A stretch of DNA of 32,000 nt from Clostridia bacterium (GTDB taxonomy: Bacteria; Bacillota; Clostridia; Lachnospirales; Lachnospiraceae), in the NCBI GenBank assembly GCA_910576205.1, contig CAJTHL010000006.1, positions 104,432-136,431 on the forward strand, written 5' to 3'. Numbering within the stretch: the stretch's first letter is position 1; each line of letters starts with the position of its first letter. This document shows, piece by piece, positions 4,995-31,919 of the stretch. Made by a program: the position numbers and the translations under genes. The notes below the pieces were generated by a model, which saw nothing but the letters and a program-made list of their open reading frames with translations, was not told where the DNA came from and did no database searches.

Positions 4995-5108
4995 TTTTCA
5001 TTTCCTCCATTTCCGGAACCATACCGCCATGCTTCTTCGGTCTTACTGGCAGCTGGCTGCTCCGGCGGGGCGCCGGGGCTTCCGTGTCTTGTTCATCCTG
5101 GCTTGCTT

Positions 5109-6068: not shown

Positions 6069-6117
6069 TATTAAGCCCCCTTCTTTTTTTGCTGGGTGTT
6101 ATTTCAGGCTACATGTT

Positions 6118-6711: not shown

Positions 6712-6729
6712 TTCAACTGTACCTCCTAA

Positions 6730-7122
6730 TTAGACTCTTCTACGTTTTGGCGGGCGACATCCGTTATGGGGAACGGGAGTCACGTCTCTGATACTGGTTA
6801 CTTCCAGGCCGCAAGCCTGAAGGGCACGGATAGCTGCCTCACGGCCAGAACCAGGTCCCTTTACCATTACGTCTACAGTCTTTAGTCCATGTACTAACGC
6901 TGCTTTCGTGGCTGTCTCTGCCGCCATCTGAGCTGCATATGGAGTAGATTTCCTTGAACCTCTAAATCCCAGACCACCGGCACTTGCCCAGGATAATGCA
7001 TTTCCTTCCGTATCCGTTAAGGTTACGATTGTATTGTTAAAGGAAGACTGGATATGTGCCTGTCCGCGTTCAACGTTTTTCTTAACGCGCTTTTTTGTCA
7101 CTTTTTTTGTAACTTTCGCCAT
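6730..7122 (-). CDS. rpsK: 30S ribosomal protein S11
   Basis: 130-aa ORF; [15 protein letters not shown] ... [14 protein letters not shown] ... RPPKRRRV. Confidence 0.97.
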
Positions 7123-7172
7123 TTTTAAACTAACCTACCTTTTTTCAACTTTAAGTTTTTTGCTGTTTGATT

Positions 7173-7224
7173 ACTTTCGCACTAACCTCAAGCTGCGCTT
7201 TCAGCTTGCTTTCGCTAAGTGCTC
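7173..7224. repeat. Copy 1 of a 52-bp direct repeat (hairpin-forming) in the rpsM-rpsK spacer
   Basis: ACTTTCGCACTAACCTCAAGCTGCGCTTTCAGCTTGCTTTCGCTAAGTGCTC, identical to 7292-7343; contains inverted arms CAAGCTG/CAGCTTG nested in GCACT/AGTGC. Confidence 0.9.
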
Positions 7225-7291
7225 TGCTTTCTTCCACTCAACTAACATGCTGCTGTCGCCTCCTGCTCCGCACCATGAAGTTTCGGGAAGG

Positions 7292-7343
7292 ACTTTCGCA
7301 CTAACCTCAAGCTGCGCTTTCAGCTTGCTTTCGCTAAGTGCTC
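7292..7343. repeat. Copy 2 of the 52-bp direct repeat in the rpsM-rpsK spacer
   Basis: Exact 52/52 match to 7173-7224, offset by 119 bp; begins 6 nt after the rpsM stop on the transcribed strand. Confidence 0.9.
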
Positions 7344-7348
7344 AATGT

Positions 7349-7717
7349 CTATTTCTTCTTGTTTGCCACTGTTCTCTTTGGTCCCTTGCGGGTTCTGGCA
7401 TTATTCTTTGTGTTCTGTCCGCGAACCGGGAGGCCCTTACGGTGACGGATACCTCTGTAGCATCCGATCTCCTGAAGTCTCTTGATGTTCATGGCAATCT
7501 CGCGTCTCAGATCACCCTCTACCTGATAGTGCTCCTCAATGATCTCACTGATTCTCTTTACTTCCTCATCCGTCAGATCTCTGACACGGGTATCGGGATT
7601 TACCTTTGCTGCTTCGAGAATCTTGTTGGCGCTGGAACGGCCGATACCGTACACATAAGTCAACCCGATCTCCACACGTTTTTCTCTTGGTAAGTCTACA
7701 CCAGAAATACGAGCCAT
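7349..7717 (-). CDS. rpsM: 30S ribosomal protein S13
   Basis: 122-aa ORF; [26 protein letters not shown] ... [15 protein letters not shown]; GGAGGA RBS. Confidence 0.97.
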
Positions 7718-7751
7718 TTGATTATTCCTCCATTATTAAAACAAATTGGGC

Positions 7752-7775
7752 GCGGATGCTTTTTTGTCCATCCGC
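7752..7775 (-). other. Stem-loop in the rpsM leader
   Basis: 7-bp stem GCGGATG (7752-7758) / CATCCGC (7769-7775) with a 10-nt loop, about 35 nt upstream of the rpsM start; no contiguous U-run follows it on the minus strand. Confidence 0.4.
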
Positions 7776-8043
7776 CTGACACTTTCCTAAATGGGGCACG
7801 AAATATTCCAGAAACGTACCCAGCCAGGCAGGAACCTGGCCTTTCAATTACTCTGCGCTTTACGCATTTCACCGTTTTAAGCAATATCAGTGTGAATAAT
7901 CTTGGTTTTTATATATTTGTATCATCAAGCGCTCCTATTATATAGGAAGAAACGCCTCACCACACCGGAGAAGCCCTCCGTAAACGCTCAATGCAGCCGC
8001 ACAAAATAATACAATCCAAGAATAACACTGCAGTTTCAAGGAT

Positions 8044-8157
8044 TTAACCCTGTCTCTGTTTGTGCTTTGGATTTTCACAAATTACTCTGATACTACCTTT
8101 TCTTTTGATGATTTTGCATTTCTCGCAGATAGGTTTTACTGAAGAACGTACCTTCAT
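8044..8157 (-). CDS. rpmJ: 50S ribosomal protein L36 (absent from the supplied ORF track)
   Basis: Hand translation of the minus strand: [37 protein letters not shown] stop; AAAGGAGG RBS 8 nt upstream of the ATG at 8155-8157. Confidence 0.95.
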
Positions 8158-8209
8158 AGCAAAGCCTCCTTTCTCAATCATACAAAACTCCGCATTACAT
8201 GCGGATTAT

Positions 8210-8238
8210 AGTATACCACTAATTTCCTGCGAATGCAA
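8210..8238 (-). promoter_or_regulatory. Candidate sigma-A promoter for rpmJ-rpsM... (TTGCAT-17-TGgTATACT)
   Basis: Minus strand: -35 TTGCAT (plus 8233-8238), 17-bp spacer ending in TGG, -10 TATACT (plus 8210-8215). A 6-bp palindromic hairpin CCGCAT-gta-ATGCGG follows in the 5'UTR. Confidence 0.5.
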
Positions 8239-8286
8239 GCGGTTTTTCTTTGAATTTCCGGTTTTTCCGGCTTTCCGATTCCTGTC

Positions 8287-8316
8287 TTGAAATGACGGGT
8301 ATTCCCATGTTAGAAT
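8287..8316 (+). promoter_or_regulatory. Candidate sigma-A promoter for tag (TTGAAA-18-TGtTAGAAT)
   Basis: TTGAAA at 8287-8292, TGT then TAGAAT at 8311-8316, about 35 nt upstream of the tag ATG. Confidence 0.45.
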
Positions 8317-8351
8317 GACAGGGAAAAGCAATCCACATTAAGGAGGAAATC

Positions 8352-8924
8352 ATGAAGGAAATAAAAAGATGCCCCTGGGCAGGGGACGATCCCCTCTATA
8401 TTGACTACCACGACCAGGAATGGGGCCGGCCTCTTCACGACGACCAGAGGCTCTTTGAAATGCTTATTCTGGAAGGCATGCAGGCCGGCCTCTCCTGGAT
8501 TACCATACTGAAAAAGCGAGCGGCCTTCCGTGAGGCCTTTGACGGGTTTGTCCCCCAGAAGGTGGCGCTTTACGACGACGCCAGGGTCGAATCCCTTATG
8601 GAAAACAAAGGCATTATCCGCAATCGCAGGAAAATCACCGCAGCTATACAGAACGCACAGGCATTTCTGAAGGTGCAGAAGCAATACGGAACCTTTGATT
8701 CGTTTATCTGGAGCTATGTGGATGGGAAGCCTGTCATCAATTCCCTGGAAAATACGGCCGATATGCCTGCCTCCACTCCGCTTTCCGACCGCATCAGCAA
8801 AGATCTGAAAAAACTGGGCTTTAGTTTTGTGGGCTCTGTTATCGTGTATTCCTTTATGCAGGCGGTGGGCATGGTGGACGACCATATGGTGTGGTGCGGA
8901 TGTCATACCAGGAACCGGGGCTGA
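8352..8924 (+). CDS. tag: DNA-3-methyladenine glycosylase I
   Basis: 190-aa ORF with AAGGAGG RBS; KRCPWAGDDPLYIDYHDQEWG ... FEMLILEGMQAGLSWITILKKR ... FSFVGSVIVYSFMQAVGMVDDH is the Tag family pattern. Confidence 0.9.
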   Translation: MKEIKRCPWAGDDPLYIDYHDQEWGRPLHDDQRLFEMLILEGMQAGLSWITILKKRAAFREAFDGFVPQKVALYDDARVESLMENKGIIRNRRKITAAIQNAQAFLKVQKQYGTFDSFIWSYVDGKPVINSLENTADMPASTPLSDRISKDLKKLGFSFVGSVIVYSFMQAVGMVDDHMVWCGCHTRNRG

Positions 8925-10570: not shown

Positions 10571-10885
10571 TCCCTCCAGCCCTTGATATGCGCTACAGTA
10601 AATATTGTACATCCTGTCATAGACCGCAGCGTTTTCCTCTATAGGCTCGTAGTGGTCCTACACATTTACCATCCTGCCCACACCCTCCGGAATATCCTTA
10701 AAAAATACCGGCTGCCTTTCCTGCCATAATGGCCGCCACAGAACCGCCGCGTCCTCCACCTCCAGGGTATCGCAGGGAAGCCTGTACATATCCGCTTGAA
10801 TCTGATTCCAGATGCGGCTGTTGGTGGCTCCTCCTATCATGCGTATGGAGCGGATCTCAATGCCGTTTTCCCGGGCTGATCTCGT
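10571..10885 (-). pseudogene. C-terminal remnant of an FGGY sugar kinase with an in-frame stop and frameshifts
   Basis: ENGIEIRSIRMIGGATNSRIWNQIQADM matches the FGGY C-domain GGGA.S..W.QI.AD motif. The expected GSVAAIMAGKAAGIF segment is only readable in another frame. The TAG at 10658-10660 interrupts ...GRMVNV*DHYEPIEENAAVYDRMYNIY, a typical kinase tail. About 400 N-terminal codons are absent. Confidence 0.6.
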
Positions 10886-11954
10886 TTAAGTTTTCCAGCA
10901 CAAGGTTGTCCCCCACACTTAACTGCTGGCACAAGCCCTCCTCCTTCTGGTTTTCCGAGGTAAATCCACACCCAAGCCGCCTCATGACGCCGGGATTCCA
11001 CCTCTTTATTTCCTTTCCGTGAAGGAACAGTTTTCCCTCCCGTACCTTGTCCAGTCCGTAAATTGCCCACAGAAGTTCTGTCCGACCGGAGCCCGGCATT
11101 CCTGCCAGCCCCAGAATCTCCCCTTTTCGCAGAGTCAGTCCCACATCCTTCAGCTTATGATTGGAAAAATGCTCCACGGCAAGAATAGTTTCCTCCTGCA
11201 CATAGGACTTTTCTTTTACGCTGTGGGACACGTTTCCGAACATCATCTGCACCAGGCTGGCCGCGTCCAGATTGGCTGCCTCTTCCGTTCCAGCCAGCAG
11301 GCCGTCTCTTAATACCGTCACCTTGTCCGCAATTTTAAAAATCTCCTGGAGTCTGTGGGAAATAAACAGGATCATAATCCCGCGCCTCTTAAGGTCCGAG
11401 ACAACGCGGAAAAGATTCTCACAGTCCTTATCCGAAAGCGCGGAGGCAGGTTCATCCAGGATCAGTACCTTGGGCTCTGCCAGCATAGCCTTGGCGGTCT
11501 CCACAAGCTGCTGCTGGCCAACCGTCAGGTCCCGGACATACGCCCTGGTATCAAGGTCGATTTGCAGATAGTCCAGGATCTCCTTTGCCTTCCGGTAGAC
11601 AAGGGGCCAGTCAATCCTGCCAGGCCTTTTTACCGGAAGCTTTCCAACCATCAGATTTTCGCCCACCGTCAGATTCTTGATAACGCTCAGCTCCTGGTAA
11701 ACGGTTACGGTCCCCTCTTTCATGTCATCCTCCGTGGAATGAAGCTCCAGCTTCTTCCCATCCAGGAAAACCTCGCCTCCGGAGGCCCGGTAGGCACCCG
11801 AAAATATTTTCATCAAGGTACTTTTGCCGGAACCATTTTTCCCCAGCACCGCATGGACATGTCCGGACTCAAAGGAGACAGAAACATTCCGAAGTGCCGT
11901 GGTGCCCGGAAACACCTTTTTTATGTGTCTCGCCTCCAAAACATACTCGGACAT
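10857..11954 (-). pseudogene. 3'-truncated sugar ABC transporter ATPase (two-NBD RbsA/MglA type)
   Basis: 365 aa from the ATG at 11952-11954 (MSEYVLEARHIK) versus 502 aa for the intact paralogue. The first nucleotide-binding domain (NBD) is complete (GKNGSGKST, VLILDEPAS). The second has only Walker A (GMPGSGRTEL) and then runs straight into the kinase remnant. Confidence 0.7.
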
Positions 11955-11989
11955 AAAGTCTCTCCCTTCTGTCACTGTGACCACATCTC

Positions 11990-12688
11990 TTATTTTGTGG
12001 CGTTTTCGTTCCAGATGGCAAGCCACTCGTCCACTTTAGCCAGGTCTTTTCTTGTCAGCTGGATACAATCCGCATGGAAGTCCTTCTCCGCCGGCTCCAC
12101 GCCGTTGACAACATAGTCGTAAACAGTCTTTACCGCATAGGTTCCCAGGGTGTAGGGGGCCTGCGCCGTGGTTCCCTGGAGAATATTCTTGTCGGATTTC
12201 ATTATCTCCACCAGCTGCTCGCTGCAATCGACAGCAAAGACAACCGTGTAAGCCTTATCGGCCACCTGTCCGTCCTGCCTTCCCACAATATGGATATCGT
12301 AGTCGGAGAGCTGGTCAGGAAATCCCTGGATTCTGGCGTCGGAGCCTGTCATATCCTGCTCGTCATAAGAAATAATCGCCATATTGATGGTCTCATTCTT
12401 TGAGAAATTCTCATCAAAATATTCCTTCGCGTATTTTCCGGTGGATTCTCCCAGGTCATAGCAGTCATTCAGGCCGGAAGCAAATACCGAATCTGAATTT
12501 AAGGTGATGGCACAGGCAAATACGGCCGCTCCCTTTTCCTTTGCCGCATCCGCGATGGCTGCCGATGTATCCGGATTTACGCATTCAATGATGATTCCCT
12601 TTGCTCCCGCCTCCATCATATTGTTGATCTGCTGAGTCTCCGTTTCCGAGGAATACTGGGAGTTGGATACGATAATATCAATCCCCGG
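11990..12688 (-). pseudogene. Fragment of a periplasmic-binding-protein-type sugar SBP (no signal peptide, internal deletion)
   Basis: The reading frame extends upstream of the track ATG to about 12688 (GIDIIVSNSQYSSETETQQINNMMEAGAKGIII). It lacks the lipoprotein signal and first strand-helix units, and a segment is missing around ...AYTVVFAVDCSEQ. About 230 aa versus 330-370 expected. Confidence 0.6.
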
Positions 12689-13231: not shown

Positions 13232-14740
13232 TTATGCCATCAGCCTTCCAATCTCCTGGCTGACTTCCTCATAGCTCTTTTCCTCCTGGTTCAGACCACA
13301 AATCTCCCCGGCGATACGATGATCTTTGAATACCAGGATACGTCTTGCAAGGGTGACCATCTCCGGCATATCCGAGGAGATCAGCAGGATGGATTTTCCT
13401 TCTTCCTTTGCAAGCTTCCAGATAAGATCATGGATATATTTCTTGGCGCCTACATCCACGCCGACAGTGGGTTCATCGATAATAAGAATATCGCAGTCCG
13501 CCGCCAGCCACTTGCCGATACTTACCTTCTGCTGGTTTCCTCCGGAGAGGTTTTGCGCATGGGTCTGCACAGAAGGCGTCTTGATCTGCATTTTCTGAAC
13601 CATGCCGTCCACAATTTCCTTTTCCTTATCCGTCTGGATTTTGCGGAAGCGGTTTAAGATGCGGTGCCAGATATTGATGCTGATGTTGGTTCCCACCGGG
13701 AAATCCAGAATCAGCCCTTCCTCCTTGCGGTTTTCGGACACATACCCAATCCGGTATTTCTCTATAGCGTCCCGGATGGAATGGATCTCCGCCCTGGCGC
13801 CATTTACATAAATCTCCCCGGAATCCATTTTGTCCGCTCCGAAGATCAGTCTGGCAAGCTCCGTGCGGCCCGAGCCGATAAGCCCGTACAGCCCCAGGAT
13901 TTCCCCCTTTTTCAAGGCCAGGCTCACATCCTCCGTTTTTCCGTAGGCTACGGCGTGCTTTACCTCAAGCACAGTCTCATCCCCCACGTCCAGGAAGCCC
14001 AGATGCTCGTTGGCTTCCTCCCGACCAATCATCATTTTTACGATCTCCGCCCGCTTCAGTCCCTGGCATTCCCTGGTTCCCACATATTTTCCGTCCCGGA
14101 TTACCGAAACCACATCGCAAAGCTCCAGCACTTCCTCGATCTTGTGGGAGACAAAAATGATTCCCACGCCCTCTTCCTTTAGCTTTTTCACAAGCCGGAT
14201 GAGGTTGCCGCTCTCGTAGCTGGTCAAGGAGGAGGTTGGCTCATCCAGCAGGATATATTTTGCATTGGCAGACAGAGCCTTGGCGATCTGGATGAGCTGC
14301 TTCTGGGCTGCGGTTAAAAGCTCCGTCCTGGCGTCCGTGCTGATGTCCAGCCCCACCATCTCCAGGTATTTCGCCGCCTCCTGGCGGACCATTTTCCAGT
14401 CCACATGTCCATGCCTGCTGTATTTGTCCAGGCGGTCCAGCACAATATTTTCTGCCACACTGGCCTCCGGTATGATCTGGATTTCCTGGCTCACCATACT
14501 GATATCGTGTTCCACGGCATCCCGGTAGCTCTTCATCTCCACCTGCTGCCCATCCAGATAAATTCCTCCCAGATCCGCCTGGTAAATTCCCGTTATGATT
14601 TTAATCAGCGTCGATTTTCCCGCTCCGTTCTCTCCCATCAGCGCATGGATTTCCCCTGTCTGAAAGGACAATGTCACATCGTCCAGAGCCTTTACACCTG
14701 GAAAGATTTTACTGATATTACGCAGTTCCAGCATTTGCAT
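13232..14740 (-). CDS. Sugar ABC transporter ATP-binding protein (two fused NBDs, RbsA/MglA/RhaT type)
   Basis: 502-aa ORF; GENGAGKST / ILLDEPTSSL in the first NBD and GLIGSGRTEL / LSGGNQQK / ILIIDEPTVGVD in the second. Confidence 0.9.
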   Translation of the reverse strand: MQMLELRNISKIFPGVKALDDVTLSFQTGEIHALMGENGAGKSTLIKIITGIYQADLGGIYLDGQQVEMKSYRDAVEHDISMVSQEIQIIPEASVAENIVLDRLDKYSRHGHVDWKMVRQEAAKYLEMVGLDISTDARTELLTAAQKQLIQIAKALSANAKYILLDEPTSSLTSYESGNLIRLVKKLKEEGVGIIFVSHKIEEVLELCDVVSVIRDGKYVGTRECQGLKRAEIVKMMIGREEANEHLGFLDVGDETVLEVKHAVAYGKTEDVSLALKKGEILGLYGLIGSGRTELARLIFGADKMDSGEIYVNGARAEIHSIRDAIEKYRIGYVSENRKEEGLILDFPVGTNISINIWHRILNRFRKIQTDKEKEIVDGMVQKMQIKTPSVQTHAQNLSGGNQQKVSIGKWLAADCDILIIDEPTVGVDVGAKKYIHDLIWKLAKEEGKSILLISSDMPEMVTLARRILVFKDHRIAGEICGLNQEEKSYEEVSQEIGRLMA

Positions 14741-14769
14741 TCCCTCCTGGTTCTGTCTGCATTTCCCCT

Positions 14770-15891
14770 TTATTTTTTCTCAAGATAATCTGTTGTCAGT
14801 CTGCCTAAGATATCCTCGGTCACCTTGTCCAGATCTGCCTGGAAAGTCTCGATATTATCCTTTGTCACAATCTGGTTTCCGGCATCCACAAAGTATACGC
14901 CGTCCTTTACCGTGTAGCCCTCTCCCATGTATTTCAGAAGCATCAGGGGAATGTAGCCGTGTCCCACATTGTTCTGCGCCACGGTTGCGTCGATGACGCC
15001 TTCTTTAATTCCTTCCATAACGGCTTCCTCTGTGTCAATACCGATGGTAAAGATATGCTCCGCGCCGGCATTTCTGTCATAATAGTCGTTGAGCACCTGG
15101 GTCATGCCTACGCTTGTAACCATTCCGGTGCAGATGATGCCCTTGATTTCTCCGCTGTTGGCTGTAAGGGCCGCCTCAATCTTGCTGACTGCCTCTTCCT
15201 GGTTTTTAATACCGGCAATTTCCTGGACGATCTCTACGTTAGGATATTTGGCAACACATTCCTCCACGCCCTCTTTGCGCAACGCCGTGTTGGGATCCTC
15301 CAGCACCTCCAGCACGTTGAGAATCTTTCCTTCTTCTCCCATCATCTGAATAAGGGCCTCTGTGGCGTCGTAAGCCGCCTGCTTTACGTCGGTTCCCACC
15401 GCAAATTTCGCCGTGGTGGGCTTGTTGGTGTCTGTTCCGAAGTTAATCACATTTACGCCCATATTTTCGCTGATCTCTTCGTAGAGTCCGTTTGCGCCGG
15501 AGGCGTCACAGGGGTAAATGGAGAGCGCATTCACGCCCTGGGCCACCAGAGCCTCCACCTTTTCATTTTCGCTGGCCTGGGTCCAGTCCGGGCCGATCTG
15601 TACCACAACTTCCATTCCCTGGTCAGCCTGGAATTTCTCTACGCCCTTCTTTACGTCGTCAAAATAGGGATGGGGCGCAGGCGCATACCAGGCGATCTTT
15701 AAATTGGAATCCGCGCTCTCCGAGGAGGCGGGTTCACCGGCGTTATCTCCCCCGGCATTCTTCTCTTCTGCCACGTCTGCCGGCGCATCCGCGCCTGCAT
15801 CTGCGCTTCCGTTATCCTTGCCGCCGCATGCGGCCAGGCCCAATACCATCACTGCACTCATTAATACTGCAAGCATTCTCTTTGTTTTCAT
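14770..15891 (-). CDS. Sugar ABC substrate-binding lipoprotein (RbsB/RhaS-like periplasmic binding protein fold)
   Basis: 373-aa ORF; lipobox LGLAAC-GG, low-complexity Ala/Asp/Gly linker, then the periplasmic-binding-protein core. Confidence 0.85.
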   Translation of the reverse strand: MKTKRMLAVLMSAVMVLGLAACGGKDNGSADAGADAPADVAEEKNAGGDNAGEPASSESADSNLKIAWYAPAPHPYFDDVKKGVEKFQADQGMEVVVQIGPDWTQASENEKVEALVAQGVNALSIYPCDASGANGLYEEISENMGVNVINFGTDTNKPTTAKFAVGTDVKQAAYDATEALIQMMGEEGKILNVLEVLEDPNTALRKEGVEECVAKYPNVEIVQEIAGIKNQEEAVSKIEAALTANSGEIKGIICTGMVTSVGMTQVLNDYYDRNAGAEHIFTIGIDTEEAVMEGIKEGVIDATVAQNNVGHGYIPLMLLKYMGEGYTVKDGVYFVDAGNQIVTKDNIETFQADLDKVTEDILGRLTTDYLEKK

Positions 15892-15909
15892 GTTTTTATC
15901 CTCCCTTAA

Positions 15910-16905
15910 TTAATTTTCTTTTGGTGAAACAGCAGCCGCTCCTTTTTTCAGCTCCTGCTTCAGTTTTCTATCGCTTATAATCTGCTTAATGCTTTCCAGT
16001 GAGACAGCCAGAAGAAGGATGAGTCCCAGATAGGTCTGCTCAAAGTAAACATTTGCATTTAACATTACCAGGCCGTTCTTTACCATGACGATCAGAATTC
16101 CCGCGAAGAACAGGCCTACGGCGTTGAATACGCCGCCCTTTAACAGGGTTCCTCCGATTACCGCTACCGCAAAGGAGATCACCATCCAGTCCACGCCTGT
16201 GGAGGGCTGGGCGGAGCCTGTTCTGGAAATCCACAGAATTCCCGCAATGGAGGCAAATACCCCGGAAGCCACGTTTGCGATAATCAGAATCCGGTTGGTG
16301 TTGACGCCGGACATTTTCGCCGCCTCAATATTTCCTCCTGTGGCCAGATACCTGCGCCCCAGAACCGTGTATTTAAACACATATCCAGCCAGAGCCAGGG
16401 CAATCACCGCCAGGATCAGCAGATAGGGAATCCCAAGGAATCCTTTCCGGCCAATGACGGTAAAGCTGTCTGGGATTCCCTCGTAGGGGAAGCCCTTGGA
16501 GATTCCGTTTATCAGCCCCGTATACACAAAGGAGGTGGCCAGGGTAACCACAAAAGCGTTAAGCTTCAGCAGTGTAATAACCAGGCCGTTAACCAGCCCT
16601 GTAAGGACGCCCACCAGCAGTCCGATGCTGACTGCTGCAAATACCGGCACCTGCATTTCCTGTAGCGCATATCCAACAGCTACTACCGTAAGCCCTCCGA
16701 TATATCCCAGGGACAGGTTCATACCTCCCACAATAACCACCATGGCCTGCCCCAGCGCTATGAACATGTAAACCGCCGCGTTCCGCCCCATATTGAAAAA
16801 ATTATAGGAGGTCAGAAAGCTGTCGGAACATACCGCAAAAATCAGTCCCAATAGGAGCACTGCCAGGATCACCGTCACTTCGCTTCTTGCAAAAAGCTTC
16901 TTCAT
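15910..16905 (-). CDS. Sugar ABC transporter permease (RbsC/branched-type, about 10 TM)
   Basis: 331 aa from the ATG at 16903-16905 (MKKLFARSEVTVILAVLLLG; AGAGGAG RBS). The track's 28-codon N-terminal extension overlaps rhaM and has no RBS. Confidence 0.85.
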   Translation of the reverse strand: MKKLFARSEVTVILAVLLLGLIFAVCSDSFLTSYNFFNMGRNAAVYMFIALGQAMVVIVGGMNLSLGYIGGLTVVAVGYALQEMQVPVFAAVSIGLLVGVLTGLVNGLVITLLKLNAFVVTLATSFVYTGLINGISKGFPYEGIPDSFTVIGRKGFLGIPYLLILAVIALALAGYVFKYTVLGRRYLATGGNIEAAKMSGVNTNRILIIANVASGVFASIAGILWISRTGSAQPSTGVDWMVISFAVAVIGGTLLKGGVFNAVGLFFAGILIVMVKNGLVMLNANVYFEQTYLGLILLLAVSLESIKQIISDRKLKQELKKGAAAVSPKEN

Positions 16906-16915
16906 TTTTCTTATG

Positions 16916-17257
16916 TCACTCCTCTCCCCGTTCCAGATGATAGACCTCCTCCATGTCCGCCCACCATTCGCCCTCCCGGGCGTCCTCAATGGGATACTGA
17001 CACGGGTCCGTCTCCTTCCACCACCTCTGCGTCGTGGGATCCGCCGCCATTTTTTTCATATCGGCCTCAAAATCTTCCCCCACATACTCAAAATAGCTGA
17101 ACAGATATCCGTTTCTATAGTAAATGGAATAATTCTGTATGTTACATTCCCGGATCATCTGGTTTACCTCCGGCCATGGATTTGCATGAAGTTCTTTGTA
17201 TTTTTCCAGAAATTCCGGCTTCACCCGGATAACCTGGCCATACCTTCTCATATGCAC
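16916..17257 (-). CDS. rhaM: L-rhamnose mutarotase family protein
   Basis: 113-aa ORF; RYGQVIRVKPEFLEKYKELHANPWPEV ... NYSIYY ... LFSYFEY ... WW is the RhaM (DUF718) pattern. Confidence 0.85.
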   Translation of the reverse strand: MHMRRYGQVIRVKPEFLEKYKELHANPWPEVNQMIRECNIQNYSIYYRNGYLFSYFEYVGEDFEADMKKMAADPTTQRWWKETDPCQYPIEDAREGEWWADMEEVYHLERGEE

Positions 17258-17307: not shown

Positions 17308-17335
17308 ATTATAGCTTTTCCCGGTTTCATTTCAA
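17308..17335 (-). promoter_or_regulatory. Sigma-A promoter of the rhaM-permease-SBP-ATPase operon (TTGAAA-16-TATAAT)
   Basis: Minus strand: -35 TTGAAA (plus 17330-17335), 16-bp spacer, -10 TATAAT (plus 17308-17313), about 50 nt upstream of rhaM. Confidence 0.55.
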
Positions 17336-17352: not shown

Positions 17353-17372
17353 AAATCTAAACGTTTTGATTT
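17353..17372. promoter_or_regulatory. LacI-type palindromic operator, copy 1 (AAATCTAAACGTTTTGATTT)
   Basis: 20-bp palindrome with central CG, 9 of 10 arm pairs complementary. Embedded in a 27-bp block (17346-17372) identical to 18755-18781. Exactly 39 nt upstream of the -10 hexamer. Confidence 0.55.
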
Positions 17373-17387
17373 TCTCTCCGGAATCCA

Positions 17388-18638
17388 CTATTTTCTGGCA
17401 CGCTCCACGGCTTTGTACATAGCCATAATATTTTCCGGCGGAACGTCCGGCAGGATATTGTGCTCTGTGTTAAAGACAAATCCTCCATCCTTGTGGAAAA
17501 TCTCAATCATCCGGCTGGTGTAATCGTAAACCTCCTCAGGCGCGGCATGATTCAGAATAGAGCGGGTGTTGCAGCCGCCTCCCCAGAAGGTAATATATTT
17601 TCCAAACTCTTTTTTGAGGCGGGCCGGGTCCATCTGATAGGCTGTAGTCTGCACCGGGCTGATAATGTCGTACCCTGCGTCAATGAGATCCCCCATCACC
17701 CCGTAAATGGAGCCGCAGGAATGCAGGAAGGTTTTCATATTGCTGTGGGTATGTACATACTCGTTGAGTTTTGTGTGGTAGGGCTTAAAGAGCTCCCGGT
17801 ATTTTTCTGCAGACATAAACATATTTTTGTCCATGCCCAGGTCATCCCCGAACCGTAGAAGGTCCACCACATCCCCCACAGCCTCGCAGGTCTTTTCCAG
17901 AGAGTGCAGGTGGCGCTCCATAAGCTGCTCCACAAGCTCCTGCACGCTCTCCGGCTCCGCGTAGATATCCATAAGGAAATTTTCCATCCTCCTAAGGAAC
18001 GTGCCCCACTCAAACAAATTGCAACCACAGGTAATCATCAGTGCCCGGTCTGTGCTGGCCCTGAGCTTTATACAGCGCTCCCTGAGATCCGCGTAGAAGG
18101 CGTCCTCGGTGGGGAAATCCTTCATGTGATCCCATGGTCCATGCACCAGGGCGCTCCAGAGCACCTGCCCCATGGCATGATCCAGATCGTCAAAGTTCTC
18201 CGGATAGTCCTCTTTATATGGGAAAATGGTCTGGTCAAAGCACATGCCTCCTTTGGGCATCCGGGCAATCAGAACCCCGTCCTGGTATACGTCGTATCCG
18301 CCATCCGCCGTACGTACAGGCTTAAACCAGGCGGGCCACTGGCCGGTTTTCCCGTTGCTCAAGGTCACGTCGTACCAGTCGCTGTCCTTCTCGTTGTATA
18401 CCCTGGCCACATCCAGGGCGTCCGCTCCAATAAGGTCCAGTACGCATTCCTCCGGCTGGGCCGCCTGCTGTACCACATCGTAAATCCGGGTGTGCCCCTC
18501 CTTAATTCCCAGATATTCTTTTAAATTTGCATACGCCTGGCCGGAAATGCCTGTGCTGACATTGCTGCCCAGATCCAGGGGCAGGTAATCCGGCTCCTTG
18601 TGATTTACGGCTGCCATTACACGCTCTCTTGACGTCAT
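17388..18638 (-). CDS. URO-D-family protein (MtaA/CmuA-like fold), function unknown
   Basis: 416 aa from the ATG at 18636-18638 (MTSRERVMAAVNHKEPDYLPLDLG; GAAGGAG RBS). The track start at 18749 lies upstream of the predicted -10. Family features: N-terminal P(D)Y.P.D, C-terminal FWGGG ... HNILPDVPPENIMAMY. Confidence 0.8.
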   Translation of the reverse strand: MTSRERVMAAVNHKEPDYLPLDLGSNVSTGISGQAYANLKEYLGIKEGHTRIYDVVQQAAQPEECVLDLIGADALDVARVYNEKDSDWYDVTLSNGKTGQWPAWFKPVRTADGGYDVYQDGVLIARMPKGGMCFDQTIFPYKEDYPENFDDLDHAMGQVLWSALVHGPWDHMKDFPTEDAFYADLRERCIKLRASTDRALMITCGCNLFEWGTFLRRMENFLMDIYAEPESVQELVEQLMERHLHSLEKTCEAVGDVVDLLRFGDDLGMDKNMFMSAEKYRELFKPYHTKLNEYVHTHSNMKTFLHSCGSIYGVMGDLIDAGYDIISPVQTTAYQMDPARLKKEFGKYITFWGGGCNTRSILNHAAPEEVYDYTSRMIEIFHKDGGFVFNTEHNILPDVPPENIMAMYKAVERARK

Positions 18639-18761
18639 CTTGTCACGCTCCTTCTCTTTTTCTGATTTTCCTGGCGGAATCTTTCCCTTTTGTGCTTTCT
18701 CCCGCTCGATAGTTCCATTATAGCGGCTGAAAATGAAAAAAGGCTCCATTTCCCGAAATAT

Positions 18762-18781
18762 AAATCTAAACGTTTTGATTT
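18762..18781. promoter_or_regulatory. LacI-type palindromic operator, copy 2, in the divergent URO-D / LacI::SBP intergenic region
   Basis: Same 20-mer as 17353-17372. It lies 39 nt upstream of a minus-strand TATAAT (plus 18717-18722) and 3 bp from the -35 of the plus-strand promoter. Confidence 0.55.
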
Positions 18782-18784
18782 ATA

Positions 18785-18814
18785 TTGACGGCAAAGAGAA
18801 GCTTCTGGTATACT
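18785..18814 (+). promoter_or_regulatory. Sigma-A promoter of the LacI::SBP fusion gene (TTGACG-18-TGgTATACT)
   Basis: TTGACG at 18785-18790, TGG then TATACT at 18809-18814; AGAGGAG RBS before the ATG at 18879. Confidence 0.5.
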
Positions 18815-18878
18815 ATCTTAAGGTTTTCATGTCCACACTGCCAACAGAATGGAATAAATACAGAGGAGAAATCATACC

Positions 18879-21185
18879 ATGGCAACTTTGAAGGATGTAG
18901 CAAAAGACGCCGGCGTGTCTATCGCCACCGTTTCCTGTTATCTAAGCGGCAGCAAGCCTGTCCGGGCTTCCACCCGTCTCAAAATCCAGGAATCCATAGA
19001 AAAGCTGAAATATATCCCCAACGCGTCTGCCCGGAATCTGAAATCCCCCCAGTCCCGGCTTGTAGGAGTTGTCCTTACGGATATCGACGATTTATACCAT
19101 GCGGAGATTTTCAAGGGCATATCCAGCAGCCTGCAAAGTGAGGGGTATTCTGCCAGCGTGGCCTTCTCCAACAATCTCCCGGACAAAGAATGCACCATCA
19201 TCAATGATTTTATCAGCCAGAATGCCGCAGGGCTTCTGATTATTACCTGCCAGCCCCAGAATACGGAATTTTTCCAGAACCGGCTTCTGAATTTCCGGAT
19301 CCCCACGGTATTTCTGGAGCGGATTCCCCAGGATCTGGATGCCTGTCTGGCCGGCTTTCAAAACGAAAAGACTGCCTTTTATCTGACGGACGCCCTGCTG
19401 GAAAAAGGATACCGTCATATTGCCCTTGTGTGCGGCCCCTCCTACTTTACCTCTGAGCACGACTGTATTCTGGGCTATCAGCGGGCCTTTGCCCAGCGGG
19501 GAATTCCCTGGGACGATTCTCTTATCTGCACCACAAATATGACCCAGGAAGACGCCTTTAAGGTTGTGCTGACCACCATCAGCCGCCAGCCTTTGGACGC
19601 CGTGATCTCCTCTTCCGAAGCCATCCACTGGGGAACCCTGGAGGCACTGAAAAACAGAGGCCTTAGGGTTCCCGGCGACATCCAGCTTATGACCTTCAGC
19701 GAGGAATCCTGGAGCCAGGCTTACCGGACCGGGGGAATCCTTTACACCTCCCGGACTGCTTTCCATCTGGGCGCGTCTGCTTCCCGGCTTCTCCTAAAGC
19801 ATATCCAGGATCCGGACTGCAAAGAAAAAAGTCTGATTCTATCAGACTCCATTCTTCAGCAGAAGCTGAATCTGCCGCCGGCCAGCTCCCTATCCCGCTC
19901 TCCTTTTACCTCCCTGGGTATTTCCGTGGTCCCCTCTTACCAGCCCCAGCTTAAGATCCTGCTGGCAGACTTGACCACCGCCCACAGCATGGAACTGCTG
20001 GCAGACAATTTCACCCGGAAAACCGGCATTTCCCTGTCCTTTGACTATCTGCCCCAAAAGGAGCTCCTGTCCCATGTCTATGAACACACGGACAAGATCC
20101 ATTCCTATGATATTTATATGTATGACGTTCCCTGGCTGGATTATCTGGTTCAGAATTCCCTGCTGGCAGATCTCACGGATTTTATCAGCGGAGACAGCTT
20201 TCATACAGAATATATTTTTCCGGAAAATATGGAGAATTGCAGATGCCAGGGCCGGTATTACGGCGTCCCCCTTATCGGCGGCACCCAGGTTCTCTTTTAT
20301 CGCAAAGACCTCTTCGAGAACAGTTCCTGGCAGAAGCTTTACTATGAACAGCAGGAGGCTCATCTGAAGCCGCCCCGCACCTGGACGGAATTTAACCGCA
20401 TTGCCGCCTTTTTTACCCGTTCTGAAAATCTCGACTCCCCCACCATGTTTGGCACCTCCATGGCCGGAATCGTGGACGAGGAGCTGGCCCCGGAGCTCTG
20501 GATCCGCCTCTGGGCCATGAACGGCTGCCTGTGGGACAGCTATAACCGCCCCTGTCTGGACAGGCCGGAAAACCAGCAGGCCTTTGAGAGCGTCCTGGAT
20601 ACCCTGCGCTATACGGAGCGGCCCCCCTTCTCCACCTCCATCTCCCAGACTGTGGAGGATTTTTCCCTGGGCAAAACCGCCATGCTTATCACCTACTCGG
20701 AATACGCCGCCCAGATCAGCCGCCATATACACGAAAACATCATCGGTCAAGTGGGATATCATCTGATCCCTGGCAGGCGTCCGGCCAGCGTGGGGTGGAA
20801 TCTGGGCATGAATCCCTACTCTGCCCGGGCTTCTCTGGCATACCAGTTCTTTGACTGGCTCTGCCAGCCGGACACCAGCTTCCACATCACCATCCTGGAC
20901 GGACAATCCCCCCTCATGGCACCCTACCATAGCCTGGAGCTCCTAAAGCTGTATCCCTGGATGTCCATCACCGAGAAGAGCTTTGCCTACACGCAAAAAA
21001 GAAAGGGGCCCTACCGGAGCCGTGCCCTGGTAGTTCCCCAGAATAAGATCGAAGCTATCCTGTGCCAGACCCTCCGCCAGATCGTTCAGGAAGGCTGTTC
21101 TGTTTTCCAATCTCTCGCGGACAACCAGGAGCGGCTGCGGGGTCTTTTATTGTCGTATGGGTATCCGAGGGCGTTTACGCATTAG
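18879..21185 (+). CDS. LacI-family regulator fused to a C-terminal CUT1-type solute-binding-protein domain (cytoplasmic, 768 aa)
   Basis: aa 1-57 are a LacI HTH (ATLKDVAKDAGVSIATVSCYL ... IPNASARNLK). aa 60-326 are the LacI sugar-binding core. aa 327-356 are a Ser/Pro linker. aa 357-768 are an SBP_bac_1/8-like domain (GRYYGVPLIGGTQVLFYRKDLFEN, PRTWTEF) with no signal peptide or TM segment. Confidence 0.8.
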   Translation: MATLKDVAKDAGVSIATVSCYLSGSKPVRASTRLKIQESIEKLKYIPNASARNLKSPQSRLVGVVLTDIDDLYHAEIFKGISSSLQSEGYSASVAFSNNLPDKECTIINDFISQNAAGLLIITCQPQNTEFFQNRLLNFRIPTVFLERIPQDLDACLAGFQNEKTAFYLTDALLEKGYRHIALVCGPSYFTSEHDCILGYQRAFAQRGIPWDDSLICTTNMTQEDAFKVVLTTISRQPLDAVISSSEAIHWGTLEALKNRGLRVPGDIQLMTFSEESWSQAYRTGGILYTSRTAFHLGASASRLLLKHIQDPDCKEKSLILSDSILQQKLNLPPASSLSRSPFTSLGISVVPSYQPQLKILLADLTTAHSMELLADNFTRKTGISLSFDYLPQKELLSHVYEHTDKIHSYDIYMYDVPWLDYLVQNSLLADLTDFISGDSFHTEYIFPENMENCRCQGRYYGVPLIGGTQVLFYRKDLFENSSWQKLYYEQQEAHLKPPRTWTEFNRIAAFFTRSENLDSPTMFGTSMAGIVDEELAPELWIRLWAMNGCLWDSYNRPCLDRPENQQAFESVLDTLRYTERPPFSTSISQTVEDFSLGKTAMLITYSEYAAQISRHIHENIIGQVGYHLIPGRRPASVGWNLGMNPYSARASLAYQFFDWLCQPDTSFHITILDGQSPLMAPYHSLELLKLYPWMSITEKSFAYTQKRKGPYRSRALVVPQNKIEAILCQTLRQIVQEGCSVFQSLADNQERLRGLLLSYGYPRAFTH

Positions 21186-21204
21186 GATACTCCCTGTGAC
21201 TCCT

Positions 21205-22182
21205 TTAGGTGGTATCTCCCTTCACCAGATGTATTTCGGAAAGCATGGTATTACAGGATATCTTTTCCCCCTCTATCTTCCGGATCAAGATATCAACTAT
21301 CTGCTCCGCGATCAGATCAAAGGGCTGCTCTACATATGTCATGGTAGGATACATCAATCTTGCGATATCCCCGCCGTCATATCCTACCAGCTTTACTTCC
21401 TCCGGTATCTTCCTGCCGTTATCCAGCAGGAACTTCATGGCATTCGCAATTATAAGATCCGAGGAAAACACCCCGTCGATCTCCGGATGTTCCTTGAAGA
21501 TAGCTTCCACAATCTCATAATACCGCTCGCGCTGAAATTCATTGGCGCTCAGTTCATAATCCATACAACGGATCTCATTTTCTTTTAAGATTTCCGCAAA
21601 TACATTATTGCGGATAAATGAAGGCGTCTTAACATTAATATCTCCTTCCAGCTGGAGAACGCACTTGCAGCGGTTTCGCACAAACTCCTCCGCCGCCAGC
21701 CGGCCTCCTTTAGCATGATCCGAGGATACTGTGGGGATGGAATCACTCAGTGATACATCCAAGGCTACCACTGGCATCTCAATCGCACGATACTCTTCTG
21801 TTTTAAGCATGTGGGTTCCGATAATAATTCCATCAACTTTATTCTGAAACAGCATCTGCAGATACTCGCTCTCATAAGCGCCCCGGTCCTTTGTGTTACA
21901 GAGAAACACCTTATATCCTTTTCTGTGCAAAAGCGTTTCTATCCGCTCTGTCATTTCTGAAAAAAACGGAATTGTCACATCGGGGATCAAAAGACCTATA
22001 TAGGATGTTCGCCGGTTGTGGAAACTCCGCGCCAGCTGATTCGGCTGATAATTCAATTCTTTTATGGCGTTCTCCACTTTATCTCTTGTCTCTTGGGAGA
22101 TATATCCCCTGCTATTCATTACACGGGAGACTGTTGTTATGGAAACCCCCGCCTGTTGTGCTACCTCTTTAATCGTTATCAT
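21205..22182 (-). CDS. LacI-family transcriptional regulator
   Basis: 325 aa from the ATG at 22180-22182 (MITIKEVAQQAGVSITTVSRVMN; GAGGTG RBS). The track start at 22194 is a GTG. Classic HTH plus periplasmic-binding-like core. Confidence 0.85.
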   Translation of the reverse strand: MITIKEVAQQAGVSITTVSRVMNSRGYISQETRDKVENAIKELNYQPNQLARSFHNRRTSYIGLLIPDVTIPFFSEMTERIETLLHRKGYKVFLCNTKDRGAYESEYLQMLFQNKVDGIIIGTHMLKTEEYRAIEMPVVALDVSLSDSIPTVSSDHAKGGRLAAEEFVRNRCKCVLQLEGDINVKTPSFIRNNVFAEILKENEIRCMDYELSANEFQRERYYEIVEAIFKEHPEIDGVFSSDLIIANAMKFLLDNGRKIPEEVKLVGYDGGDIARLMYPTMTYVEQPFDLIAEQIVDILIRKIEGEKISCNTMLSEIHLVKGDTT

Positions 22183-22221
22183 GCCGCACCTCACTATCCC
22201 AAAGCCTTTTTCCGTACCAGA

Positions 22222-29668: not shown

Positions 29669-29697
29669 ATCATATCACTTCTTTTTTTATATGTCAA
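29669..29697 (-). promoter_or_regulatory. Strong sigma-A promoter of the SBP-permease-ADH-GRE-activase operon (TTGACA-17-TGaTATGAT)
   Basis: Minus strand: consensus -35 TTGACA (plus 29692-29697), 17-bp spacer ending in TGA, -10 TATGAT (plus 29669-29674), about 35 nt upstream of the SBP ATG. Confidence 0.6.
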
Positions 29698-29709
29698 TCG
29701 TTTTCATAT
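29689..29709 (-). promoter_or_regulatory. Operator-like site A (ATATGAAAACGATTGACATAT on the minus strand), overlapping the -35
   Basis: Contains a LacI-type half-site ATGAAAACG and inverted ends ATATG/CATAT. 18 of 21 positions are identical to site B, which lies in the opposite orientation. Confidence 0.4.
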
Positions 29710-29829: not shown

Positions 29830-29850
29830 ATATGAAAACGAGCGTCATAT
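29830..29850 (+). promoter_or_regulatory. Operator-like site B (ATATGAAAACGAGCGTCATAT)
   Basis: Perfect 6-bp inverted ends ATATGA/TCATAT around a 9-bp core. Its centre is 141 bp from the centre of site A. Confidence 0.4.
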
Positions 29851-30491: not shown

Positions 30492-31247
30492 CTATAGGGA
30501 CAAAGTCAGAAGCTCCGGTTCTCCGCCCGTAATCAGAACCGTATTCTCATAATGTGCCGACAGGGAGCCGTCCTCCGTGACGACCGTCCAGTCGTCGTCC
30601 AGCCAGCACACTTCCCATCCCCCGGCGTTAATCATGGGTTCGATGGCAAGAGTCATGCCGGGCATAAGCCGGATTCCCCTGCGCTTCTGCCGGAAGTTTG
30701 GGATTTGCGGATCCTCGTGAAGCTTTGTGCCAATGCCGTGTCCCACCAGGTCCTGTACAACCCCATAGCCAAACTGGTCTATATAATCATTGATAGCCGC
30801 GGAAATCTCGTGGAGATGCCTGCCAGCCCTGGCATACTTGATTCCCTCGAAAAAACTCTGTCTTGTCACTGCGATTAGCTGCTCCGCCTCTTTGCTGATT
30901 TTCCCAACTCCATGGGTTCTGGCGGCGTCCGAATGATAGCCCTTGTAAATAAGACCTGCATCCAGACTTACAATGTCCCCCTCCATTAGGATACGTTCCT
31001 TGTGTGGGATCCCATGAACCACTTCATCGTTCACGGAGACACAGATGGACGCCGGATATCCATTGTAATTCAGAAAATTTGGGATACATCCCCGCTCCCG
31101 GATAAGCTTCTCGCCATAGCGGTCAATATCCAGAGTGGAAATCCCGGGTTTCACAAACGCTCCCAGTTCATTATGAACCTCCTCCAGGAGCTTTCCCGCA
31201 ATGCGCATATATTCTATTTCTCTGGCAGACTTAATTGTTACTGACAT
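30492..31247 (-). CDS. map: Type I methionine aminopeptidase
   Basis: 251-aa ORF; metal-ligand context VVHGIP, DIVSLDAG, YHSDAARTH, VGHGIG, LAIEPM, HYENTVLIT. Confidence 0.95.
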   Translation of the reverse strand: MSVTIKSAREIEYMRIAGKLLEEVHNELGAFVKPGISTLDIDRYGEKLIRERGCIPNFLNYNGYPASICVSVNDEVVHGIPHKERILMEGDIVSLDAGLIYKGYHSDAARTHGVGKISKEAEQLIAVTRQSFFEGIKYARAGRHLHEISAAINDYIDQFGYGVVQDLVGHGIGTKLHEDPQIPNFRQKRRGIRLMPGMTLAIEPMINAGGWEVCWLDDDWTVVTEDGSLSAHYENTVLITGGEPELLTLSL

Positions 31248-31250
31248 ATA

Positions 31251-31895
31251 TTACGCTCCCAAAATCTTCACAATATTCTGGAACACAGCTTCCATCTCCT
31301 GGGTGCCGTCCACCTCTGCCAGCTTGTTCTGGGAAGTATAGTACTCAATAAGCGGCTGAGTCTGGTCATGGTATACGCCCAGTCGTTTCTTTACGGTTTC
31401 CGGCTTATCATCGTCCCGGAGTACCAGCTCCTTGCCACATCTGTCGCAGATGCCCTCCACCTTTGTGGGTATATGCACAATATGATAGGTGGCACCACAG
31501 GCAAGACACGCCCTGCGGCCGGACATGCGGTTGACAATATTCTCGTCGGGCACCTCCACATTGATTGCAAAGTCAATGCTCTCTCCCTTTTCCTCCAGGG
31601 CCTTTGTCAAAGCCTCCGCCTGGGGAATGGTCCTGGGAAATCCATCCAGCACATAACCGCCCGCGCAATCTGGATTCTTGAAGCGGTCCATAATCAGCTC
31701 CAGTGTCAGCTCATCCGGCACCAGAAGCCCTTGATCCATATATTCTTTTGCTTTTTTGCCAAGCTCGGTTCCCTCTTTCAGGTTCGCACGGAAAATATCA
31801 CCCGTGGAAATATGCGGAATCTGGTATTTATCCGCAATCTTCTTGGCCTGGGTCCCTTTCCCTGCGCCAGGTGCGCCTAACATGATGATCTTCAT
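31251..31895 (-). CDS. adk: Adenylate kinase (Zn-lid type)
   Basis: 214 aa from the ATG at 31893-31895 ([16 protein letters not shown]; AGAGGAGAG RBS). The track start at 31901 is a TTG. Lid motif CLACGATYH ... CDRCG. Confidence 0.95.
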
Positions 31896-31919
31896 TTTCA
31901 AACTCTCCTCTATTCAAAC

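Follow-up and report, generated by a model that had tools for sequence, protein, structure and literature searches.

This locus raises the question of what a LacI-type regulator, whose effector core is itself of the periplasmic-binding-protein kind, might do with a second and complete binding-protein domain in the same chain. The window studied in this work (the whole stretch of 32,000 nucleotides taken from contig CAJTHL010000006.1 of a Lachnospiraceae genome) contains, at 18879-21185, a gene that an earlier note, made from the letters alone, had described as a LacI repressor fused to an ABC solute-binding protein (SBP). The analysis presented here indicates that this fusion regulator is real, widespread, mis-annotated and experimentally tractable. 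As for its role, the protein is probably a cytoplasmic one-component regulator of the LacI/GalR type that uses its C-terminal, complete CUT1-type SBP domain as an intracellular sensor, and that controls a set of genes encoding a URO-D-like protein, a RhaM-type mutarotase and a CUT2 importer. The gene and the modules of its product are as follows.

18879-21185, forward strand: gene of the LacI-SBP fusion regulator, 768 residues plus stop, an open reading frame (ORF) without interruption
18879-19058, forward strand: LacI-type helix-turn-helix (HTH; residues 3-48) and hinge helix (residues 49-60), Pfam PF00356
19059-19856, forward strand: LacI/GalR-type effector core with the type-I periplasmic-binding-protein fold, residues 61-326, Peripla_BP_1/3/4
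19857-19946, forward strand: Ser/Pro-rich flexible linker, residues 327-356, from the alignment and pLDDT
19947-21182, forward strand: complete CUT1-type SBP domain with the type-II fold, residues 357-768, cytoplasmic, SBP_bac_1/8

The uninterrupted 768-residue frame was borne out by the ORF analysis, and the proposed order of HTH, LacI core, linker and full SBP was recovered by Pfam searches, structure prediction and fold comparison. PF00356 matched residues 3-48 with 54.8 bits (cutoff 27), and Peripla_BP_1, 3 and 4 covered residues 62-318, each above its curated cutoff. The C-terminal part, for which a check against SBP family models had been suggested, was recognized by SBP_bac_1 at residues 408-662 (56.9 bits, cutoff 26) and by SBP_bac_8 at residues 374-665, again above the curated cutoff. 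The chain thus has a third module and 768 residues, compared with the approximately 330-360 of a typical LacI/GalR protein. No signal peptide or lipobox was found in it, the N-terminus being occupied by the HTH, nor any membrane helix (the maximal 19-residue Kyte-Doolittle mean was 1.18), all in agreement with what had been noted. Since the protein begins with an HTH, the whole of it is cytoplasmic. That it might be an exported or membrane protein was considered and ruled out, because it has no hydrophobic segment and starts with the HTH. The linker proved to be rich in Ser and Pro, as described, and is the sole unconserved segment, with 14% mean pairwise identity and a length that varies among orthologs.

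The three-dimensional models are in keeping with this architecture. The AlphaFold2 model, built on 27 homologs, reached a mean pLDDT of 86.4 and a pTM of 0.80, with disorder predicted for the hinge (49-56) and for part of the linker (342-352, pLDDT below 50) only, and a second model, of an ortholog only 46% identical, gave a pTM of 0.78. When the halves were compared with the Protein Data Bank (PDB) by means of Foldseek, the N-terminal one matched CcpA, PurR and RbsR with target-normalized TM-scores (TMt) of 0.67-0.88, the highest value corresponding to CcpA cores, whereas the C-terminal one matched complete CUT1 SBPs (4rya, 5ysf, 6dtq, 5iai, 1eu8 and 7ofy) with TMt of 0.81-0.85. Foldseek identified no solved chain in the PDB covering both halves, the best query-normalized score (TMq) being 0.46. 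Sequence searches of the PDB pointed in the same direction, with CcpA found for the LacI core (E about 4e-38) and 1eu8, 5iai, 5ysb and 6dtq for the SBP half. Because pTM values of 0.80 and 0.78 exceed what a single rigid domain comprising 54% of the chain could reach, a defined packing of the SBP domain on the LacI core is implied, a prediction read from the pTM alone.

The earlier note had asked how often such a fusion occurs, and the answer is that it occurs repeatedly. A word-indexed protein search yielded more than 120 clusters of full-length homologs (728-799 residues, 46-98% identity), with the same domain set in all but a few N-truncated members. These clusters derive from both isolates and metagenome-assembled genomes (MAGs), and include proteins of the cultured Blautia schinkii, Robinsoniella peoriensis and Muricomes; the cultured carriers comprise B. 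schinkii DSM 10518, R. peoriensis CCUG 48729, Murimonas intestini DSM 26524 and Faecalicatena contorta. At the level of genomes (one per species), a single-protein query retrieved only three loci, and an alignment-based query was used instead. It provided 400 stretches confirmed by tblastn, the best 80 of which were inspected and corresponded to 79 distinct loci, nearly all of them matching essentially the full length of the query with 35-91% identity. Most of the genera named belong to the Lachnospiraceae (Blautia, Faecalicatena, Murimonas, Diplocloster, Herbinix, Anaerotaenia and Anaerocolumna), and beyond this family the gene was found in one Oscillospiraceae MAG and in several termite-gut Treponema. 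Two paralogs are present in some of the genomes.

The history of the SBP half was approached by searching residues 357-768 alone, exhaustively, against 1.84 billion protein representatives, which produced 302 clusters at an E value of 1e-30 or better. Among the best 150 relatives, 116 possess the HTH (617-783 residues, median 750), 11 are N-truncated proteins in which some of the LacI core is retained, and the other 23 are short pieces. Where the N-termini of these short matches were read, none proved to be a signal peptide; such matches begin within the C-terminus of the LacI core or in the linker, and can therefore be regarded as truncated fragments. No free-standing, exported sister SBP was present among these best 150 representatives. 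Hence, as judged from the sequences, this SBP lineage is essentially always fused and constitutes a separate clade, which means that the fusion is old and has diversified. The source names seen for the homologs are, without exception, "extracellular solute-binding protein" or "multiple sugar transport system substrate-binding protein". As the homologs are cytoplasmic HTH proteins, the first of these names is wrong, and in the annotation of gut microbiomes hundreds of such regulators are listed among transporter components and overlooked as transcription factors.

The next piece of evidence concerns the DNA that the regulator would read. The HTH is the best-conserved region of the protein (77% mean pairwise identity). 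In the window protein its recognition helix reads TVSC (residues 17-20; 18927-18938), so that Arg22 of E. coli LacI corresponds to Cys20. This Cys is invariant in the 27 family sequences, as is Leu54, the equivalent of the leucine lever Leu56 of LacI. Two candidate operators and one promoter-like element were located near the gene.

18764-18779, no strand assigned: operator O1, ATCTAAACGTTTTGAT, between the divergently transcribed URO-D-like and regulator genes
17355-17370, no strand assigned: operator O2, ATCTAAACGTTTTGAT, upstream of the rhaM/ABC-importer operon
18785-18814, forward strand: promoter-like hexamers of the regulator gene, TTGACG, an 18-nt spacer and TATACT, with TG; 10/12 consensus matches, weak

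O1 and O2 are identical, each inside a stretch of 26 bp that the two places have in common, and their core differs by one mismatch from the perfect palindrome ATCTAAACGTTTAGAT, the family consensus. Allowing up to three mismatches, the consensus matches the window only at these two places, compared with 0.06 matches expected. The site can be described as a 16-bp palindrome, ATCTAAACGTTT(A/T)GAT, with a central CG. Most orthologs of at least 41% identity, those of Treponema included, have it in the 450 bp preceding the regulator gene, and among the 79 non-redundant loci it stands in front of the regulator gene in 48 cases, of the URO-D gene in 40 and of rhaM in 20. In orthologous loci a second operator also precedes the next transcription unit. 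The operator is present, moreover, at loci with no other LacI gene nearby, among them loci reduced to the URO-D gene and the regulator.

The operator varies together with the recognition helix. Proteins with TVSC are associated with (A/T)TCTAAACGTTTAGAT (also written ATCTAAACG), those with TVSY with ATTTAA(A/T)CG..AAC(T/C), and those with TVSN with (A/G)GTAAATCGTTTTAC(T/C) (also written (A/G)GTAAATCG). Taken together, the position of the operator upstream of the orthologs, this co-variation, the conservation of the HTH and the invariant leucine lever identify O1 and O2 as the regulator's own sites, and their designation as predicted operators of the fusion protein is strongly supported. The 20-bp palindromes at 17353 and 18762, which had been singled out as possible binding sites, thus gained support from the window scan, from the orthologs and from the helix. 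It can be mentioned that, in the 116 full-length fused representatives, the helix motif is TVSN in 86, TVSC in 11, TVSY in five, TVSK in five and TVSH in one, and was not found in eight. The canonical arginine (TVSR) is missing across the fused clade, a signature that could be used for re-annotation.

The genes preceded by these operators form the putative regulon, whose members other than the regulator itself are listed here.

17388-18638, reverse strand: URO-D-family gene, 416 residues from the probable start Met38 (ORF extending to 18749), Pfam URO-D
16916-17257, reverse strand: RhaM-family sugar mutarotase gene, Pfam rhaM, E=9e-34
13232-16989, reverse strand: CUT2-type ABC importer as a whole, Pfam BPD_transp_2, Peripla_BP_4 and ABC_tran
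15910-16989 (ORF), reverse strand: CUT2 permease, BPD_transp_2, probable start near 16905
14770-15891, reverse strand: Peripla_BP_4 lipoprotein SBP, starting with a lipoprotein signal
13232-14740, reverse strand: CUT2 double ATPase, ABC_tran

From the two operators, the regulon in the window would consist of the regulator gene and the URO-D-like gene, both through O1, and of the rhaM-permease-SBP-ATPase genes through O2. All window proteins were then compared by tblastn with 85 related loci. Homologs of the URO-D-family gene were found at 61 of them, the orthologs being 58-91% identical and lying, as a rule in divergent orientation, 110-700 bp upstream; those of the CUT2 ATPase and permease at 58; and those of rhaM at 48. 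The same picture emerges from the Pfam tables of the genes called around three homologs, and in some genomes the module is composed of URO-D and regulator only. A conserved regulon comprising the regulator gene itself, the URO-D-like gene that diverges from it, rhaM and the CUT2 importer is, as far as comparison of sequences goes, strongly supported. Regarding the URO-D-like ORF, its length of 453 residues (17388-18749) is probably an over-long annotation, given that its homologs have 412-417 residues and that the likely start is Met38, at 18638. With that start, the divergent intergenic region measures about 240 bp, and O1 falls near its middle.

Are both binding modules functional? The mean pairwise identity is 54% in the SBP half and 49% in the LacI core, and invariant columns amount to 14% of the former (58 columns) and 9% of the latter; both modules are under purifying selection. 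E. coli LacI, with its sequence checked at 19 landmark residues, was used as a ruler for the core. Several of its inducer contacts are replaced (R197 by Cys, Ser or Ala; N246 by Ser; W220 by Met or Leu; F293 by Ala; and D274 by E275). The pocket-aligned residues T123, S192, S246, E275 and R292 are nevertheless conserved in at least 22 of the 27 family sequences. Contacts that are replaced and yet conserved within the family speak of a remodelled pocket, not of a visibly decayed one, and the notion of a decayed core pocket was accordingly not supported.

For the SBP half the ruler was E. coli MalE, checked at 15 landmarks and aligned by hhalign with 95.8% probability and 22% identity. Family-invariant residues were found at, or next to, the equivalents of its ligand contacts E153 (E534), Y155 (E539), W230 (E608), W340 (C729), E111 (G468) and D65/R66 (P418/W419). 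Among the positions aligned with MalE contacts, 7 of 11 are at least 90% conserved, compared with 109 of 412 in the domain overall (Fisher p=0.0096). This supports a cleft predicted to be functional but of unusual chemistry, with acidic residues and a Cys in the place of the stacking aromatics.

Several other explanations deserve to be weighed against a sensor role of the SBP domain. The simplest would be an artefact, in which a mis-assembly, a missed stop or a frameshift joined two genes. Nothing but the unusual length speaks for it, and a continuous architecture of 745-799 residues in over 120 independent clusters, from isolates and MAGs and with cultured strains among them, as well as at the 79 genome loci, leaves it a negligible probability. 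The alternative that the domain is a structural module, serving in oligomerization (in replacement of the LacI tetramerization helix) or in protein docking, with the core pocket as the sole effector site, is unlikely but has to be taken more seriously. The conservation of the five pocket residues named above makes the core pocket look functional, the SBP cleft is devoid of the usual aromatic stacking residues, and, given the high pTM and the packing of the SBP on the core, the conservation of the domain could reflect an interface. However, the SBP fold is complete in its two lobes and its hinge, and resembles ligand-bound SBPs with a TMt of 0.84; invariant residues are enriched at the cleft-aligned positions (p about 0.01); a two-lobe domain of 410 residues would be a costly mere oligomerization tag; and the linker is long, flexible and unconserved, as befits a mobile sensor. 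It is highly improbable, on the other hand, that the C-terminal domain is an enzyme with the SBP fold, like thiaminase I, and the protein a bifunctional enzyme-regulator. This idea draws on weak matches (TIGR04541, 35 bits; 4kys, E=4e-5) and on the invariant cysteines C454 and C729 of the SBP half, but the TIGR04541 score is far below the cutoff of 175 bits, the matches cover the generic CUT1 N-lobe motif only, and C454 aligns with a different cysteine. The presumed catalytic position, obtained as an offset from the tabulated 2thi range and lying in a P-Q-x-x-C-T-N segment of thiaminase, is in the fusion protein the invariant G468.

A further proposal links the regulator with the other side of its gene, where a glycyl radical enzyme (GRE) operon with a CUT1 transporter is found. 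According to it, the SBP module was recruited from that locus or senses its substrate, and the regulator coordinates both flanking loci. In its favor, the fusion gene does lie between the two loci in the window, and a motif block is common to the SBP half and the GRE-locus SBP. The similarity that the earlier note had pointed out between these two proteins is real, but it is generic and stands at the level of the family only (26% identity over 78 residues, E=5e-5), far below that to other fused proteins. Furthermore, homologs of the GRE, its activase and the GRE-locus CUT1 SBP were present at none of the 85 related loci by tblastn, and those of the CUT1 permeases gave only weak matches (27-36% identity) at two; the second LacI gave weak matches at three. 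No fusion operator was found near the GRE promoter region, both window matches being on the URO-D/rhaM side. The GRE operon is preceded instead by LacI-type sites of its own, A and B, at 29689-29705 and 29830-29846 (ATGTCAATCGTTTTCAT and ATGAAAACGAGCGTCAT), which are unlike the fusion operator and presumably belong to the conventional second LacI, encoded at 21205-22194. The co-occurrence, the distribution of operators and the weak similarity contradict the suggestion that the module senses the compound imported by the GRE/CUT1 locus. Equally, a gene bridging two sugar loci is at odds with operator copies placed only on the URO-D/rhaM side and with URO-D, CUT2 and rhaM as the conserved partners. 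We therefore consider this proposal very unlikely.

If the fusion protein is an intracellular sensor for the URO-D/rhaM/CUT2 module, the chemistry of that module becomes relevant. The URO-D-like protein shows weak matches to MtaA and CmuA, and a sequence search found no homolog of it in the PDB. It belongs to a highly conserved family of more than 7,900 clusters (at an E value of 1e-20 or better), named only "uroporphyrinogen decarboxylase family protein" or "methyltransferase". The UroD superfamily includes corrinoid methyltransferases acting in O-, S- and halogen-demethylation (PMC10418091). In Treponema sp. TIM-1 (locus L083, 10290-16853), a second perfect operator precedes a corrinoid operon that encodes an uncharacterized 423-residue protein, a DUF2284 protein, a B12-binding corrinoid protein and a RACo activator, with a Pterin_bind methyltransferase gene nearby. 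Corrinoid-protein genes were found within 8 kb of the regulator at 11 of the 85 loci, and Pterin_bind genes at 6; the loci listed beside L083 for linkage to corrinoid genes are L008, L009, L027, L028, L031, L034, L040, L041, L076 and L081. RACo genes also flank L001 and L002 (position 1-144). The URO-D-like partner is, from such relationships, probably a corrinoid-dependent methyltransferase. The combination of corrinoid genes, a RhaM-type mutarotase and a CUT2 importer of the monosaccharide type suggests methyl transfer on an imported sugar derivative, and gene linkage is what makes a pathway of corrinoid-dependent methyl transfer on an imported monosaccharide derivative probable. In any case, the operator and its regulon offer a handle on a very large and uncharacterized URO-D-like family whose genes are linked to those of sugar uptake and, in certain genomes, to those of corrinoid methyl transfer.

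Some distant paralogs of the regulator (39-42% identity, with the TVSY helix) are found in a different setting, namely in L048 (4029-7794 and 10247-12468) and L064 (6488-7853 and 10493-11977). They adjoin genes for L-fucose isomerase, FucU and an FGGY kinase, or else a Fucose_iso_C-like gene, Amidohydro_2 and MaoC, and the FGGY kinase linked to a paralog is 58% identical to the kinase encoded at 123-1532 in the window. These neighbors suggest that the fusion family as a whole deals with sugars of the 6-deoxyhexose type.

All these observations can be integrated in a model. A dimer of the regulator would bind O1 and O2 through the HTH and the leucine-lever hinge, as other LacI proteins do, and the occupancy of these sites would govern the expression of the regulator itself, of the URO-D-like gene and of the rhaM/CUT2 importer operon. 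Inside the cell, the SBP domain would serve as a Venus-flytrap sensor of the imported sugar or of an intermediate of its pathway, and its movement from the open to the closed state might be passed on to the LacI core, across the predicted contact, and from there to the hinge and the HTH, switching DNA binding. Repression is the default mode of the LacI family, and the most likely outcome of SBP closure would be its release. In addition, a second effector may be bound by the LacI core, whose pocket is remodelled but conserved.

Several facts weigh against this model or limit it. Relative to the promoter-like hexamers, all of them weak consensus matches, the operator is centered at about -61.5 for rhaM (17308-17335), at about -49.5 for the regulator gene, whose hexamers start 5 bp downstream of O1, and at about +37 for URO-D (18815-18844). 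Activators typically sit at positions such as the first two, whereas the third is typical of repression, so that activation at some promoters is conceivable, to the extent that these weak promoter calls are correct. The stacking aromatics of MalE (W62, Y155, W230 and W340) are replaced by Y415, E539, E608 and C729, and it follows that the ligand may not be a plain sugar or that the cleft may serve inter-domain contacts. The MalE alignment stands at 22% identity, and ligand binding by either module is a prediction made from sequence. Finally, the closest relative at the species level (L007, 91% identical in amino acids) occurs in an unrelated context and without an upstream operator, which means that the linkage between regulator and regulon is not absolute or universal. 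In that locus (6494-8800, a Lachnospiraceae MAG) the gene is an orphan, and the coding region alone matches the window (84% DNA identity), with unrelated flanks.

A more ambitious version of the sensor model would have both Venus-flytraps at work, with the two modules sensing two metabolites, for example an O-methylated sugar and its demethylated product, and jointly setting the occupancy of the operators of a new corrinoid-dependent route of sugar demethylation. At present this appears an improbable elaboration. Were it true, the route would center on an abundant and uncharacterized URO-D-like family in gut Lachnospiraceae and termite-gut Treponema.

Other features of the window can be described briefly. 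The fusion gene converges on the second LacI gene, and the 19 bp reported between their stop codons were found to be correct (21186-21204). No terminator-like hairpin was seen in this gap in a simple scan, terminator scans giving weak consensus matches only, and so the transcription of each gene could read into the other. At 10857-12619, on the reverse strand, a 209-residue Peripla_BP_4 fragment (profile positions 51-172 only) overlaps a 389-residue ABC_tran ORF, and may represent what is left of a second, decayed CUT2 transporter beside the intact one. The window also contains rpsD (6118-6711), rpoA (5109-6068) and rplQ (4470-4994) at one side (region 4470-6711) and a map-like methionine aminopeptidase gene (30492-31247) at the other (region 30492-31901). 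Between these ribosomal-cluster genes, approximately 20 kb are occupied by the CUT2/URO-D module, the fusion regulator, the second LacI gene and the GRE/ADH/CUT1 operon. In many bacteria these ribosomal-cluster genes are contiguous, and therefore the sugar loci look as if they had been inserted into the ribosomal-protein supercluster.

How does the fusion protein compare with known systems? With LacI, PurR, RbsR and CcpA it shares the N-terminal HTH, the leucine-lever hinge, the type-I core and a CG-centered palindromic operator near sugar genes, and CcpA, RbsR and PurR are its best matches in both sequence and fold. It differs from canonical LacI/GalR proteins in being approximately 410 residues longer, by a whole second binding-protein domain, in having a Cys in the recognition helix (Asn or Tyr in sister subfamilies) instead of Arg22, and in the replacement of R197, N246, W220 and F293. 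It also scores far below every NCBIfam equivalog cutoff; the closest equivalog, ccpA (TIGR01481), gave 156.8 bits versus the 442.35 required.

As regards CUT1 SBPs, such as MalE, the TMBP of T. litoralis (1eu8), MalE3 of T. maritima (6dtq), the sophoro-oligosaccharide SBP 5ysf and SmoF (7ofy), the fusion has the same two-lobe type-II fold and the N-lobe motifs. Unlike them, it is cytoplasmic, lacks signal peptide and lipobox, and shows acidic residues and a Cys instead of stacking aromatics. Nor is it linked to CUT1 permeases (the BPD_transp_1 pair), the conserved transporter being a CUT2 system with a Peripla_BP_4 lipoprotein of its own.

Venus-flytrap sensors on DNA-binding proteins are not new. 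AraR combines a GntR-type HTH with a LacI-type core, E. coli XylR a LacI-type core with an AraC module, and LysR-type regulators employ the type-II fold. In each of these cases there is one such module, whereas the fusion protein has two in tandem, one of type I and one of type II. The use of SBP Pfam families as sensory domains in regulators has been stated in general terms (PMC9602780). In the literature that can be searched in full text, subscription-only literature falling outside the search, no description was found of a regulator combining LacI with SBP_bac_1/8, of any transcription factor with modules of type I and type II in tandem, or of a URO-D/rhaM/CUT2 gene set.

A comparable arrangement is that of the eukaryotic ionotropic glutamate receptors, where a type-I, LIVBP-like domain is followed by a type-II, LAOBP-like one; in NMDA receptors both of them bind ligand and are allosterically integrated. 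These are membrane channels, not DNA-binding proteins, and they represent a conceptual analog only, no homology being implied beyond the folds. In another group of systems an output is changed by ligand-dependent docking, as when MBP docks to Tar, LuxP to LuxQ or ChvE to VirA, or when CcpA is activated by HPr-Ser46-P. By analogy with them, the LacI core could be modulated by the fused SBP as by a co-regulator, with the difference that here the module is covalently attached and intracellular. LacI repressors are the textbook example of gene control by allostery and a standard tool of synthetic biology, and the fusion lineage could reveal how a single DNA-reading head is coupled to two Venus-flytrap domains, besides providing a scaffold for two-input biosensors.

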